A model generated the notes under the pieces. The model saw only the letters and a list, made by a program, of their open reading frames with translations. It ran no database searches and had not been told where the DNA came from. Below are positions 2,900-39,245 of a stretch of DNA of 47,184 nt, in pieces (the stretch's first letter is position 1; each line of letters opens with the position of its first letter). This stretch comes from Planctomycetota bacterium (GTDB lineage: Bacteria; Planctomycetota; GCA-002687715; DRQF01): the NCBI GenBank assembly GCA_036479435.1, contig JAZGFI010000263.1, positions 1 through 47,184 on the forward strand. Reading direction: 5' to 3'. The position numbers were made by a program, and so were the translations under genes.

Positions 2900-3097
2900 G
2901 CCGCCACTACCAATGTCCTTATGACACTCAGGACTTGCTCAGCATTGAAGGAGCCACAAAGATCGAAATCAAGCCACCGGGCGAACGTGTATCTTCTTGA
3001 AGCCCCGGCTATGATTTCGTGTTCCCGTGTAAATTTCGCGAACCGCGAAGACCCGTGCTTCGCCCCTCGCACTTTGTCCCAGAATAGGAAACAAACC

Positions 3098-4309
3098 ATG
3101 CTGAAATCGAGGCTGCTCCTCGTTGTTTTGATGGTCACGATGGGCATCGTCCCGACGTGGGCCCAAGAAGCAACGAAGGATGCCACTAAACAAAGTGACC
3201 TTGAGTCGACGATCAAAAATGCGATCGACGAACTCGCTGCCCTTGAATCCAAATTCGACAAGAAGCTGCGCGCCATGCCGCGCAATGAGCAACGAGCTTA
3301 TTACAACGAGAACCAGCCGGATGCGGCCCCCTTCATCGCACGCGTCAAAAAAGCCGTCAGCGCCAACAGCGCCGACCCAGCGGCAGCCGCAGGATTGAAC
3401 TTTCTCATCCAGCGTTCCCAGCGCGGCGACGACAAGACCAAGGCTTGGGCCAGCGACCTTGCACTCAAACATCACCGCAATGACGCCAAGTGCATGGGGA
3501 CCGTTATTGGCGGCTGCGAACGCGACTACAGCGTCAAGTCGGCTGGTATCCTCGAGTCATTGGGGACCCATCGCGACTCGCAGATCGCAATTCCAGCCTT
3601 GTTCTCAAAGATCGAACGCTTGAAGAGTCTCGCAGGAGCCGCGAAGCGTTTTGGCGGCATCACCGACGACAAGATGAAAAAGGGCTGGATCGATCACTTT
3701 GGCGATGACGTCATCGCCTCTTTCACCGATGTTGACAGTGCCAAGACCGAATCCAAAGCCGAGACAATGCTCAGGGCATTGGCCAAAAACCCCGACCTCG
3801 CCAAGGTCAAGTACCGCCGGGGCACCTACGCCGACGCGGTCAATGACAAGCTCTTCGTCCTCGACAACCTCGCCGTGGGCAAAAAAGCTCCCGAGATCCT
3901 CGGCACCGACGTCGATGGCACCGAGTTCAAGTTGTCCGACTATCGCGGCAAAGCCGTGCTCTTGGACTTCTGGGGTCACTGGTGAGGCCCCTGCGTGGCC
4001 ATGTTCCCACACGAGCGGTCGCTCGTTAAGGCTTACCAAAACCGTCCCTTCGCCATCGTTGGCGTCAACTCCGACTCAGATCTCAAAGAAGTTAAGGAAA
4101 AGAACGCCAAGCAGAACATCACTTGGCGCTCCTTCTGCGACAAGAGCGGCGGCCCGATCGCCAAAGCCTGGAGAATCCGAGGCTGGCCCACGCTTTACTA
4201 CATCGATCACGAAGGTGTCATTCAGCACATCAACGAACGCGGTGAAAAGAAGATGGAAGAGATCATCGAAGCGATGGTCGTGAAGGCTGAAGCCGCCCAA
4301 AAGGGCTAG
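3098..4309 (+). CDS. secreted TlpA/thioredoxin-like disulfide reductase, probable selenoprotein (UxxC; UGA at 3983-3985)
   Basis: ORFs 2921-3985 and 3995-4309 are in the same frame; reading through TGA gives [60 protein letters not shown], a complete TlpA fold; ATG at 3098 follows AGGA and starts a signal peptide. Confidence 0.88.
4011..4026 (+). promoter_or_regulatory. candidate bacterial SECIS hairpin
   Basis: ACGAGC-GGTC-GCTCGT perfect 6-bp stem, loop begins with G, loop about 31 nt downstream of the in-frame UGA. Confidence 0.6.
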
Positions 4310-4337: not shown

Positions 4338-4380
4338 CCCCGTCGCGGATTTCATCGTCTGCGGCGGGGCTTTGTTTTGT
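4338..4380 (+). terminator. intrinsic terminator between convergent genes
   Basis: CCCCGTCGCGGA...TCTGCGGCGGGG stem followed by CTTTGTTTTGT. Confidence 0.75.
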
Positions 4381-4391
4381 CTCGAAATTTT

Positions 4392-5189
4392 CTAACCCGA
4401 AAAGTCTTTCGGGGTGATGGGCCAGCGACGCCCGCAACGCGGGCAAGTCACATCGACGGAATCGCGATCAGAAAACAGGGTCTCCCGGTCGTCAGCCCAG
4501 GCCGCCGTCACAATGTGCGCGACTTTCTCTTTGCTGCATCCGCACTGAAACCAAAACTCGCGCTCATCGAGCGACCGGAGCTTGTCGTAGTTTTTGCGGG
4601 CTTGGTCTCGATCGAGCTGCTCGATCCAGTCATGGTGTCCCACCGGCAAGCTGGCGACCATAAGGTAGTCGTTGAAATCTAACTCGAAATAGCGCGTCAT
4701 GGCCTGATCGGATCGACGCGAGTATTGCTCGAATATCTGAAGGACATCCAAGCCCTCCACTTCGACGACGCTGCGACGGTCTTGCCCTTGGCTCCGCCTC
4801 GAATCGACGTAAAGGCGCGAAGTCTGGGCGGTCTGCACATCTTCGGCGTAGAAGCAGCCCGTGACACCGCGGCTTACCGTGGACCCCGTCGCAAAGAGGT
4901 TCATCGCCGGTTCCTTGATGTTCAAAGTCCAGGCGAGGTTTTCGTCGTGCGGGCGCGAGGAAAGATAAAGGGCCGATCCGCCTAAGAGCTGGTGCATCAT
5001 GATCTCGCCCAAAGGATCGGGGTCAACCTGCCACAGGCGGGCGTGATCGTCATAGGCGGCGCTAAGAGCCGTGAAATCGCCGCGCGCGTAGATGGCTTCG
5101 TTTTTTTCATCCAGCATGCGCCGCACCAAAACACGACCGGGCATCGGCGGTTCGGTCGGCGCTGGCTTGGAATCTGAAGATGAAGTCAA
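4392..5189 (-). CDS. hslO: Hsp33 family redox-regulated chaperone
   Basis: C-terminal zinc motif FQCGCS...VTCPRCGRRW; EQYSRRSDQ resembles the YF..SEQ motif; start codon uncertain. Confidence 0.75.
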   Translation of the reverse strand: MTSSSDSKPAPTEPPMPGRVLVRRMLDEKNEAIYARGDFTALSAAYDDHARLWQVDPDPLGEIMMHQLLGGSALYLSSRPHDENLAWTLNIKEPAMNLFATGSTVSRGVTGCFYAEDVQTAQTSRLYVDSRRSQGQDRRSVVEVEGLDVLQIFEQYSRRSDQAMTRYFELDFNDYLMVASLPVGHHDWIEQLDRDQARKNYDKLRSLDEREFWFQCGCSKEKVAHIVTAAWADDRETLFSDRDSVDVTCPRCGRRWPITPKDFSG

Positions 5190-7760: not shown

Positions 7761-8187
7761 ATGCGCGCTTGGGTCTTGAGAGAAAACTTTGGGCCGGGAG
7801 GATTGTCTTTGGAGCAGATCCCCTCCCCGCGGCCCGGGCGCGCTGAGATCTTGATCCAGGTCAAAGCCTCAGCTCTTAATCGCGCGGATCTGCTGCAAAC
7901 CCATGGGCACTACCCCGCCCCTAAATCTGACATCGAAGTGCCGGGCTTGGAGTTCGCGGGTGAAGTCTTAGAAGTCGGGGCCGAGGTACGGGGCTTTGCG
8001 GTCGCGAAGTGACGACGAAAAAAGCGAACTCATCGCCGAGCTGGAGAACGCCTGTCGTTCCCGTCTCGAGGCGGGCCGGCTCGATCCTGTCGTTGACCGC
8101 GTTTTCGACTTTGAGCAGACGCCAGCCGCTTTGGAGTATCTGGCCTCACGCGCGAACCTCGGCAAAGTCGCACTACGCCACACCTGA
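7761..8187 (+). pseudogene. NAD(P)H:quinone oxidoreductase (zeta-crystallin/PIG3 type) with large internal deletion and frameshift
   Basis: N-terminal part (VKASALNRADLLQTHGHYP..PGLEFAGEVLEVG..GFAV) joins directly in another frame to C-terminal part (LRSRSDDEK..LDPVVDRVFDF..GKVAL); nucleotide-binding domain is absent. Confidence 0.85.
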
Positions 8188-8226
8188 GCCGGTGAGATTC
8201 CAGGGTAAAGTGGCTATGATGCGCCC

Positions 8227-34861: not shown

Positions 34862-36196
34862 GGGCGATCACAGTTTTGCGAGGACCTTACAGAAGAGTTC
34901 TTTCTATACTACTCGGCGCTCCCCACTCACTCGCGTAGAGAAATCGGAGATCCATGCCCATGCGTCAAAGTCTCATTCTCGTTATCCAAACCCTAGCCTC
35001 GATCGCGATGGTGGCGGCATTTTTCACCACGACCGCCTTAAGCCAACTTCCGATCCGCTTCACGGTGGACGGCGACTCTGCTGGCGACCGACTCGGCTTT
35101 TCCGTCAGTGGCGCGGGTGATGTCAATGGCGACGGCTTCGACGATATCATCGTCAGCGCGCCGCTCGACGACAACAACGGACCGGACTCAGGCAGCGCTC
35201 GCGTCTACTCTGGTTTCGACGGCGCGATCTTGTACACCTTTAATGGCGACTCTGCTGACGATCAACTCGGCTTTTCCGTCAGTGGCGCGGGTGATGTGGA
35301 TGACGACGGCTTCGACGATATCATCGTCGGCGCGGTGGGCGACGACAACAACGGATCGTTCTCAGGGAGCGCTCGCGTCTACTCTGGTTTCGACGGCACG
35401 ATCTTATACACCTTCAATGGCGACTCTGCTGACGATCAACTCGGCTTTTCCGTCAGTGGTGCGGGTGATGTGAATGGCGACGGGTTTGACGATCTGATTG
35501 CCGGCGCGTGGCTCGACGACAACAACGCATTCTCCTCAGGGAGCGCTCGCGTTTACTCTGGTTTCGACGGCGCGATCTTGTGCACCTTCAATGGCGACTC
35601 TGGTGGCGACCTACTCGGAGTCTCCGTCAGTGGCGCGGGTGATGTGAATGGCGACGGATTTGACGATCTGATTGCCGGCGCGTGGCTCGACGACAACACC
35701 GGAGCCAGCTCAGGCAGCGCTCGCGTTTTTTCTGTCTGCGGTCAGCAGCTCTACGGGTCGGGGATCGATCCAGCGCAAACGCTGACCTTTGAATGGCGGT
35801 CCTTTTCGGGGGGGTTAAATGCCGCGAATGGAGAGCTCATCGCCGATGGTTCAGCGCCCTTCAGTCCAGGAGTATTTGCTCTCAGCACGCAGCCCTCAAT
35901 GGCTTCCCTGCTCGGCTTCACGCTCTTGGTCGATATTGCGCCCAGCAATGCTCTCATCCTTGAGAACTTTAGCTACGACGCCGCCGGCCAGCTCGTCGTC
36001 CCGCTCAGCCTGCGGCAACCAGTTCTTGCTGGCCTCACCCTTTTTCTGCAGGTGGTCGAAGGGAACCCCGCGGCTCCGATGGGCCTCTTCTCATCAAATG
36101 GTCTCGAGCTACTCTTTTGCAACTAAGGTCGCGAAGTCATGAGACGCAAGATCCCATGGCAAGGGGCACTCAGAAAATGATGCGCTCGACCTCGTC
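34862..36196. repeat. segmental duplication copy 1 (upstream region + FG-GAP gene + integrase 3' end)
   Basis: Homologous to 37392-39245, including CTATACTACTC..CCCCACTCACTCGCGTAGAGAAATCG upstream and GGGGCACTCAGAAAATGATGCGCTCGACCTCGTC downstream. Confidence 0.9.
34960..36126 (+). CDS. secreted FG-GAP / integrin-alpha-like repeat protein (4 repeats)
   Basis: Signal peptide; 58-aa repeats LG.SVSGAGDVNGDGF.D.I.GA..DDNNG..SGSARVYSG with Ca-binding-type DVNGDG loops. Confidence 0.92.
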   Translation: MRQSLILVIQTLASIAMVAAFFTTTALSQLPIRFTVDGDSAGDRLGFSVSGAGDVNGDGFDDIIVSAPLDDNNGPDSGSARVYSGFDGAILYTFNGDSADDQLGFSVSGAGDVDDDGFDDIIVGAVGDDNNGSFSGSARVYSGFDGTILYTFNGDSADDQLGFSVSGAGDVNGDGFDDLIAGAWLDDNNAFSSGSARVYSGFDGAILCTFNGDSGGDLLGVSVSGAGDVNGDGFDDLIAGAWLDDNTGASSGSARVFSVCGQQLYGSGIDPAQTLTFEWRSFSGGLNAANGELIADGSAPFSPGVFALSTQPSMASLLGFTLLVDIAPSNALILENFSYDAAGQLVVPLSLRQPVLAGLTLFLQVVEGNPAAPMGLFSSNGLELLFCN

Positions 36197-36595: not shown

Positions 36596-36850
36596 ATGTC
36601 CAAAAACACATCCTTCATCCTCGGTGAGCACTTCGACACTTTCGTGGCGTCGCAGATCGCGGTCGGCCGCTACGCGAACGCGACCGACGTCATCCGCTCG
36701 GGCCTTCGATTGCTCGAAGAGCATGAGCAGAAGGTCGAGGCCCTCCGCAACGCCTTGATCGCGGGCGAGGAGAGCGGCGTCGCCGGTCCGCTCGACATGA
36801 ACAAGATCAAAAAGCAAGCACGCGAAAAAGCTGGCCTAGCGCCATCTTGA
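36596..36850 (+). CDS. parD: type II TA antitoxin, ParD family (RHH)
   Basis: MSKNTSFILGEHFDTFVASQIAVGRYANATDVIRSGLRLLEE..LRNALIAGEESG. Confidence 0.92.
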   Translation: MSKNTSFILGEHFDTFVASQIAVGRYANATDVIRSGLRLLEEHEQKVEALRNALIAGEESGVAGPLDMNKIKKQAREKAGLAPS

Positions 36851-37391: not shown

Positions 37392-39245
37392 GGGCGATCG
37401 TGGTTTTACGAGGACTTTTCAGGAGAGTTTTCTCTATACTACTCTGCGCTCCCCACTCACTCGCGTAGAGAAATCGAAGGTCCATAGCCATGCGTCAAAG
37501 TCTCATTCTCGTTTTCCACACCCTGGCCTCGCTCGCGATGGTGGCGGCATTTTTCACAACGACCGCCTTAGGCCAACTTCCGATCCGTTTCACGGTGGAC
37601 GGCGACTCTGCTGGCGACCGACTCGGACAATCCGTCAGTGGCGCGGGTGATGTCAATGGCGACGGCTTCGACGATATCATTGTCGGCGCAGCGTTCGACG
37701 ACAACAACGGTTTCAGCTCAGGCAGCGCTCGCGTCTACTCGGGTTTCGACGGCGCGATCTTGTACACCTTTGACGGCGACTCTTCTGACGACCGGCTCGG
37801 CTATTCCGTCAGTGGCGCGGGTGATGTGAATGGCGACGGATTTGCCGATCTTATTGCCGGCGCGCCTGCCGACGACAACAACGGATCAGCCTCAGGCAGC
37901 GCTCGCGTCTACTCTGGTTTCGACGGCGCGATCTTATACACCTTCAATGGCGACTCTGCTTTCGATCAACTCGGCTTTTCCGTCAGTGGCGCGGGCGATG
38001 TGAATGGCGACGGATTCGGCGATATCATCGCCGGCGCGTGGAGCGACGACAACAACGGATCAGACTCAGGCAGCGCTCGCGTCTACTCGGGTTTCGACGG
38101 CGCGATCTTGTACACCTTCAATGGCGACTCTGTTAGCGACATACTCGGCTTTTCCGTCAGTGGCGCGGGTGATGTGAATGGCGACAGCTTCGACGATATC
38201 ATCGCCGGCGCGCAAGGCGACGACAACAACGGATTCGACTCAGGTAGCGCTCGCGTCTACTCGGGTTTCGACGGCGCGATCTTATGCACCTTCAATGGCG
38301 ACGCTGCTGGCGATCAACTCGGCTCCTCTGTCAGTGGCGCGGGTGATGTGAATGGCGACGGCTTCGGCGATATCATCGCTGGCGCGCGTAGCGACGATAA
38401 CAACGGATCGAACTCAGGCAGCGTTCGCGTCTACTCTGGTTTCGACGGCGCGATCTTGTTCACCTTCAATGGCGACTCTGCTGACGACCAACTCGGCCTT
38501 TCCGCCAGTGGCGCGGGCGATGTCAATGGCGACGGCTTCGACGATATCATCACTGGCGCGCGTGGCGACGATAACAACGGATTGAGCTCAGGGAGCGCTC
38601 GCGTCTACTCGGGTTTCGACGGCGCGATCTTGTTCACCTTCAATGGCGACTCATTTGGCGACATACTCGGAGACTCCGTCAGTGGCGCGGGTGATGTGAA
38701 TGGCGACGGATTTGCCGATGTCATCGCCGGCGCGTGGAGGGACGACAATAACGGATTGGACTCAGGCAGTGCTCGTGTTTTTTCTGTCTGCGGTCAGCAG
38801 CCCTACGGGTTGGGGATCGATCCGGCGCAAACGCTGACCTTTGAATGGCGATCCTTTTCTGGCGGGACGGATGCCGCGAATGGAGAGCTCCTCGTCGGTG
38901 GTTCAGCGCCATTCAATACGGGAATTTTTGCCCTCAGCACGCAGCCCACGATGACTTCCATGCTCGGCTTCACGCTTTTGGTCGATATTACGCCCAGCAA
39001 TTCCTTCACTGAGAACTTTGTCTACGACGCCACTGGTCAGCTGATTGCTCCGCTCAGCCTGCGGCAACCCGTTATCGCTGGCCTCACCTTTTTTCTGCAG
39101 GTGGTCGAAGCGAACCCCGCGGCTCCCATGGGCGTCTTCTCGTCAAATGGTGTCGAGCTACTCTTTTGCAACTAAGGTCGCGATGTCAATAGACGCATGA
39201 CCCCATGGCGAGGGGCACTCAGAAAATGATGCGCTCGACCTCGTC
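37392..39245. repeat. segmental duplication copy 2
   Basis: See copy 1; homology ends after ..CGACCTCGTC at 39245. Confidence 0.9.
37490..39175 (+). CDS. secreted FG-GAP / integrin-alpha-like repeat protein (7 repeats)
   Basis: Paralog of 34960-36126 with seven 58-aa repeats. Confidence 0.93.
   Translation: MRQSLILVFHTLASLAMVAAFFTTTALGQLPIRFTVDGDSAGDRLGQSVSGAGDVNGDGFDDIIVGAAFDDNNGFSSGSARVYSGFDGAILYTFDGDSSDDRLGYSVSGAGDVNGDGFADLIAGAPADDNNGSASGSARVYSGFDGAILYTFNGDSAFDQLGFSVSGAGDVNGDGFGDIIAGAWSDDNNGSDSGSARVYSGFDGAILYTFNGDSVSDILGFSVSGAGDVNGDSFDDIIAGAQGDDNNGFDSGSARVYSGFDGAILCTFNGDAAGDQLGSSVSGAGDVNGDGFGDIIAGARSDDNNGSNSGSVRVYSGFDGAILFTFNGDSADDQLGLSASGAGDVNGDGFDDIITGARGDDNNGLSSGSARVYSGFDGAILFTFNGDSFGDILGDSVSGAGDVNGDGFADVIAGAWRDDNNGLDSGSARVFSVCGQQPYGLGIDPAQTLTFEWRSFSGGTDAANGELLVGGSAPFNTGIFALSTQPTMTSMLGFTLLVDITPSNSFTENFVYDATGQLIAPLSLRQPVIAGLTFFLQVVEANPAAPMGVFSSNGVELLFCN

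Follow-up and report, generated by a model that had tools for sequence, protein, structure and literature searches.

A predicted exported selenoprotein joining a TPR-like helical domain to a TlpA/ResA-like domain in a Planctomycetota bacterium

The gene and its parts

The DNA analyzed here (hereafter, the window) is a stretch of 47,184 nucleotides from a Planctomycetota bacterium (assembly GCA_036479435.1, contig JAZGFI010000263.1), and the element under study is a gene at 3098–4309 on its forward strand, comprising 403 codons and a TAG when an in-frame TGA is read as selenocysteine (Sec); full-length homologues with cysteine at this place are of similar length. The open reading frame (ORF) starts at the ATG in 3098, 8 nt downstream of a Shine-Dalgarno-like AGGA of presumed function (3086–3089, +). 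The TGA (3983–3985, +) is codon 296, in the context DFWGHW-TGA-GPC, and is followed by 107 further codons up to the TAG ending at 4309. Under translation table 11, the gene is read as two ORFs, one that stops at 3985 and another of 104 aa (3995–4309), and its 295-aa front and 102/104-aa back are separate entries in the public protein collection. The sequence bears out the initial annotation, which had placed a Sec residue 296 at the first Cys of a W-U-G-P-C motif in a 403-aa protein and had stated that gene callers split it in two. Over these 1.4 kb, two assemblies from separate studies show no differences (both are possibly this DNA's own source, which makes their independent support weak), and the in-frame TGA is very unlikely to be a sequencing error.

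The product has a calculated mass of 44.7 kDa, or 42.2 kDa without the signal peptide predicted at residues 1–22 (3098–3163, +). The latter is of the cleavable type, with a basic start, a hydrophobic core and T-W-A before Q, and was called on visual inspection together with a hydrophobicity rule (score 3.09). It is followed by an N-terminal domain (residues 23–257; 3164–3868, +) predicted to be a TPR-like alpha-solenoid; the helical N-terminal domain claimed at the outset was recovered in the predicted structure, where these 235 residues are all-helical apart from one short hairpin. The TlpA/ResA-like thioredoxin domain (residues 258–403; 3869–4306, +) embeds the putative Sec296 at the attacking position of UxxC, the probable resolving cysteine Cys299 (3992–3994, +; invariant in 70/70 aligned sequences), and a G-W-P-T (4181–4192, +) at the cis-proline loop position of the fold, where P364, aligned to ResA/DsbE, is also invariant (70/70) and presumably in the cis geometry. 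Downstream of the TAG, a 13-pair stem with a T tail (4338–4369, +) resembles a terminator by its match to the consensus.

The Pfam domains AhpC-TSA (PF00578, residues 260–378) and Redoxin (PF08534, residues 260–389) extend across the TGA with scores above the cut-offs, AhpC-TSA being the best Pfam match; a weak GSHPx match was also obtained. The predicted structure (predicted local distance difference test, pLDDT, 94.5; predicted template modelling score, pTM, 0.87) has the thioredoxin fold with TlpA-type insertions, and its closest structural matches are DsbE and ResA. W295, U296, C299 and P364 fit the W-C-x-x-C motif and the conserved Pro loop, with Sec replacing Cys. The model predicts a protein composed of a TPR-like helical solenoid and a ResA-like domain. 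The NCBIfam scores for orthologues of ResA, TlpA and DsbE are below the cut-offs (82/170, 47.3/230 and 32.9/123 bits, respectively), the NF041054 WAxxUGC model gives 37.1 of 300 bits with a different motif, and no curated model covers the helical + TlpA subfamily.

No cytochrome c maturation genes lie beside the gene, whose neighbours are EamA, Hsp33-like, DUF885 and acyl-CoA dehydrogenase genes. The Hsp33-like redox chaperone gene (4392–5189, −) is convergent with the selenoprotein gene and is not kept beside its relatives.

Decoding of the UGA at codon 296

The genome (5.47 Mb, 92% complete) harbors selA, selD and the tRNA-Sec gene together on contig C117 and selB on contig C237, all above curated cut-offs. 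The SelD and FdhA genes of this same genome carry a TGA at their known Sec sites. According to the genome tRNA scan, tRNA-Sec is the sole tRNA with anticodon UCA, and Trp has only CCA.

The TGA at codon 296 is not there by chance, since, of the 21 domains of thioredoxin fold detected in this genome, 14 have an in-frame TGA, as do all 54 family matches (E 1e-30 or better) obtained in 23 of 31 searched genomes. The genome itself contains six close paralogues, this gene included. In a sample of 151 genomes of the phylum, matches were retrieved in 39, with TGA in 68 of 73 matches, and the family is carried by 38 of the 150 sampled genomes other than this one. W-U-x-x-C was read directly in the 55 distinct gene copies at the retrieved loci, the remaining TGA matches being counted as TGA-holding only. 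Each of the 49 genomes that have a TGA-holding match also has SelA (in one of them, G115, as two pieces under the cut-off), while none of the 15 genomes without a SelA match carries the TGA form, one of these (G092) having a stop-free match. On the protein side, the 120 homologues listed out of 233 matches contain 89 W-C-x-x-C motifs and, at that place, 11 other residues, so that the alternation of Cys and UGA proposed in the initial annotation is borne out, with TGA in the genes of relatives and Cys in homologous proteins. Several listed homologues are fragments starting with M[FY]PHERSLV or ending with DFWGxW, which, judging from their sequences, appear to be pieces of split UGA genes. At three loci of relatives (L021, L023 and L037), a single frame combines two complete helical + TlpA units and contains two UGAs as well as two identical hairpins, the middle piece being entered in databases as a 'redoxin domain-containing protein'.

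Downstream of the UGA, a hairpin was predicted as the selenocysteine insertion sequence (SECIS) at 4011–4026 (+), within the H-E-R-S-L-V codons. Our own script gave it a 4-nt GGUC loop (4017–4020), a 6-bp stem, a spacing of 31 nt past the UGA and −7.9 kcal/mol, which agrees with every term of the bSECIS model in the available part of PMC13188914 (loop of 3–9 nt, stem of 4–16 bp, G in the first two loop positions, spacing of 16–37 nt, at most −7.5 kcal/mol). In this genome's selD, the hairpin has the loop A-GGUC-U at 32 nt, i.e., the same GGUC at nearly the same distance. The 16-mer forming the hairpin is identical in all 42 HERSLV-encoding copies, though adjacent codons vary. In 46 tabulated copies, Arg is always CGG (34/34) and Ser always TCG (34/34), whereas nearby Pro, Arg and Leu use four or five codons; genome codon usage gives the five codons a chance of 0.0045 per gene, the copies being related. 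In the genome, the 16-mer occurs five times, each time 28 nt downstream of the start of a TGA.

Several observations speak against this interpretation. The isolated 68-nt RNA prefers another fold, with a stability no better than that of shuffled sequences (z −0.14), and the hairpin emerges only if at least 9 nt right after the UGA are omitted from the folding. The stem pairs are invariant and therefore provide no covariation evidence, the sole pair-keeping change having been seen in C112. The 16-mer is missing in 13 of the 55 UGA copies, about eight of which have no convincing hairpin; some copies of this kind are usual, because the accessible BSepDB data give a canonical SECIS for 87.4% of the entries. 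Just two Cys-form genes encoding this same peptide were found; one (L146) keeps the exact 16-mer, and the other has two changes. Finally, SelA is frequent in the samples anyway (28/30 and 47/60) and related genomes are not independent; since SelA is common, its co-occurrence with TGA is supportive and not decisive.

Some Cys-coding genes of the relatives retain the hairpin 16-mer completely (L146, 301–347), for the most part (L145) or by half (L045), and these sequences might be traces of a Sec-to-Cys change. Five HEKEMV-type UGA copies (L029, L030, L034, L040 and L143) have no model-fitting hairpin, and the selD hairpin in their genomes looks ordinary.

On the whole, the UGA at 3983–3985 is almost certainly decoded as selenocysteine, as far as can be judged from sequence. 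Every check proposed with the initial annotation that was run supported the selenoprotein reading, including those on the machinery for Sec (genes for SelA, SelB, SelD and tRNA-Sec are all present) and on a downstream SECIS-like hairpin.

Other candidate selenoproteins of the genome

The genome was scanned for TGA codons that are flanked on either side by coding-like sequence and accompanied by a SECIS-like hairpin, using TAA and TAG as control. Positives amounted to 31 of 238 for TGA and to 12 of 332 for TAA + TAG (Fisher p 4e-5); given this control rate, about a quarter of the raw TGA matches are expected to be false. By eye, 36 candidate genes were chosen, 34 of which were compared with NCBIfam and 30 with Pfam. 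They include SelD, FdhA, a VPGUxxT protein above cut-off, two AhpD-like proteins, Ogt, two DUF3179 proteins, three HMA matches, a BCP peroxiredoxin, an ASPIC/FG-GAP protein and about 12 TlpA/redoxin-like proteins; several are without a family. A signal-peptide-like start was recognized in 27 of the 36 candidates and, by the same crude rule, in 629 of 1356 long ORFs. The set is large, yet below the ten largest selenoproteomes of BSepDB (46–63, in the data available to us).

A single DsbD_TM match was found in the genome (C271:81187–84207, −; L092). This sole DsbD found has U-P-N-C in a fused thioredoxin domain, with a SECIS-like hairpin. At 30 DsbD loci of relatives, U-x-x-C was read in 26 and C-x-x-C in three, and neither was found in one. 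The genome also contains three COX1-family genes, untyped, which suggest oxygen respiration; the host is likely an aerobe.

One candidate frame of at least 1257 codons (C181:4389–8159, +; L110), open at the contig end, has three UGAs, in two TlpA-like domains (WUTPC and WUGPC) and, in the middle, at a GGYGUTC site. A redoxin-like gene (C218:402–1931, −; L106) has U-E-E-U and a single GGUC hairpin for two UGAs, and another gene (C55:7110–8111, +; L111) has two adjacent UGAs just past a signal-peptide-like stretch (AQ-U-U-SGG) and no Pfam/NCBIfam family. Four HMA-like proteins (on C124, C146, C109 and C96; −), predicted to be exported, have Sec in the metal-binding loop; the one on C124 (L093) is made up of three repeats with one UGA each and has no Pfam match. 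A type 2 VPGUxxT protein (L090; C274:3989–5113, −) has a signal-peptide-like start and, within an MsrA-like domain, another UGA, its second; it is a possible client of envelope reductases. At seven loci (C295, C209, C283, C262:50376, C294, C46 and C97), the candidates have no catalogue match at the Sec site; among them are an FG-GAP repeat protein (W-U-C-I-G-M-C), a C-U protein, a BNR-like one (P-G-U-P), a C-V-U protein and others.

Elsewhere in the window, an 83-codon ORF at 7761–8188 (+) resembles the start of what we take to be a quinone oxidoreductase and is perhaps followed by its last 50 codons in another frame; an internal deletion has probably left it as a remnant. Two genes for FG-GAP-like secreted proteins whose N-termini are almost the same (34954–36126 and 37490–39175, +) flank a small antitoxin-like ORF (36596–36850), all labelled by eye.

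Proposed role, alternatives and comparison with known systems

Following established selenoprotein biology, SelB would bind the GGUC hairpin and bring the Sec-tRNA, so that residue 296 would be Sec; when selenium is absent, translation would halt, leaving a 295-residue piece without the active site. Export is very probable from the sequence features, with a predicted cleavage past Ala22 releasing a soluble envelope protein of 42 kDa. By analogy with the ResA/TlpA fold, the selenolate of Sec296 would attack a disulfide or an oxidized cysteine of a client protein, and Cys299 would release the client and form an Se–S bond. The N-terminal Ig-like domains of DsbD, which is described as the source of envelope reductant (PMC2631958, available part), might then re-reduce the protein. 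The TPR-like domain is predicted to bind and select clients, its divergence among paralogues splitting the work, which is the least certain step. Overall, the gene very likely yields one 403-residue selenoprotein, predicted to be exported and likely an envelope disulfide reductase, a reading to which we assign a probability of about 65%; analogy makes it similarly probable that a reductase role is fed by DsbD. Some data do not favor this role. The structural neighbours include DsbF-like proteins and peroxiredoxins, which are not reductases of this type, and the Glu located three residues past the second Cys of ResA is Met302 here. Moreover, a conserved neighbourhood hinting at a substrate was found at none of 56 loci, and nothing was seen in this analysis for a contact between the protein and DsbD.

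The alternative that survives best, although unlikely, is that Sec is inserted and the protein exported, but acts as an oxidase or isomerase, in the style of DsbC/DsbG, on clients held by the TPR-like domain. Such a role would suit the large putative binding domain, the replacement of the ResA Glu by Met, and the presence of DsbF-like and SdbA-type proteins among the TlpA-like structural neighbours, some of which act as oxidases; C-G-P-C, on the other hand, is the reductant motif of cytoplasmic thioredoxin. Besides, the nearest structures (ResA, DsbE/CcmG and Etrx2) are described as reductant carriers in the accessible text of PMC2631958 and PMC3914529. Even less probable is a direct envelope scavenger of peroxide or of selenium/metal rather than a protein disulfide reductase, with which the top AhpC-TSA and weak GSHPx matches, the COX1-family genes and the many Sec antioxidant candidates of the genome are consistent. 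It is very improbable that the TGA is a true stop, be it in a pseudogene, through an error or between two small genes, or that a variant code assigns it Trp or some other residue. Gene callers do split the ORF, a start codon is available at 3995/4001, and the isolated RNA has a better fold than the hairpin; yet a stop would sever the thioredoxin domain at the catalytic position in no fewer than 55 gene copies and in many families, SelD and FdhA have TGA at known Sec sites, and the only UCA tRNA is tRNA-Sec.

The roughly 36 candidates, 27 of them signal-peptide-like and including the sole DsbD found, suggest a selenium-based envelope reducing relay in a likely aerobe. A broader and tentative scheme, which we hold to be somewhat doubtful, is that envelope reduction in these Planctomycetota runs on selenium: a Sec-DsbD would feed an enlarged array of exported Sec-TlpA proteins, which would be directed to their clients by variable domains, TPR-like or other, within at least 35 mostly exported selenoproteins of an oxygen-respiring host, Sec being ancestral in this family, the SECIS having fixed HERSLV, and the Cys forms being reversions. 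If true, it would be contrary to the picture in the available part of PMC13188914, in which the largest selenoproteomes belong mostly to anaerobes, selenoproteins are seldom retained by aerobes and the Sec-to-Cys change is rare in bacteria; Planctomycetes are not mentioned in that part. A likely aerobe would then keep dozens of selenoproteins in an oxidizing envelope, with Sec even in DsbD, and it would be well worth asking how such a relay escapes wasteful oxidation; in E. coli DsbD, the attacking cysteine is held unreactive, with a pKa of 10.5 (PMC2631958, available part). As for annotation, a common Planctomycetota family is severed at its catalytic residue, which leaves an active-site half without signal peptide and another half that looks hypothetical. 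For selenium biology, the gene offers a well-supported, predicted exported selenoprotein with an unusually rigid SECIS, i.e., a test object for an RNA signal constraining a protein.

No paper on this TPR-like + TlpA subfamily was found in the literature search, although the BSepDB entries themselves may hold it; TlpA and Planctomycetes are unmentioned in the main text of PMC13326102 and PMC12013277, as far as available. With respect to known systems, the Sec of this protein replaces the first Cys of ResA (Bacillus), TlpA (Bradyrhizobium), CcmG/DsbE and pneumococcal Etrx2; it differs from them also in its extra 235-residue helical domain, in a predicted cleaved signal peptide instead of a membrane anchor, and in having no ccm or msr genes adjoining, and from ResA in the Met for Glu. 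Bacteroidota proteins with a helical domain + TlpA (PDB 4yod, BACCAC_02376) resemble it in architecture only (root-mean-square deviation 4.9, 16% identity). The NF041054 protein likewise has a ResA-like domain in which Sec lies close to the active site, its motif being WAxxUGC instead of W-U-G-P-C. A thiol-disulfide isomerase-like family was named in the Sargasso Sea data (PMC1088965, available part), and UxxC thiol-disulfide isomerase-like (cd02966), Redoxin and Prx-like families are catalogued as predicted in the available part of PMC13188914. The present protein is like the thiol-disulfide isomerase-like and redoxin ones in its UxxC within a TlpA-like/Redoxin domain, its predicted status and its in-ORF SECIS, by description only, the table being without domain architecture or location. 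In planctomycete P1, split 'thiol-disulfide isomerase-like thioredoxin' selenoprotein candidates were reported in 2016 (PMC4807772, Table S9, available part), which correspond to this gene in the phylum, in the two annotated genes and in the Cys of the closest homologue; they differ in that bSECISearch gave no SECIS for those two, again compared by description only. The gene alone is, therefore, less notable than the initial annotation had judged, since the genome has five other close paralogues of it and the family is widespread and of a type that has been published before; it represents a known kind of selenoprotein and would be no surprise to a selenoprotein specialist.
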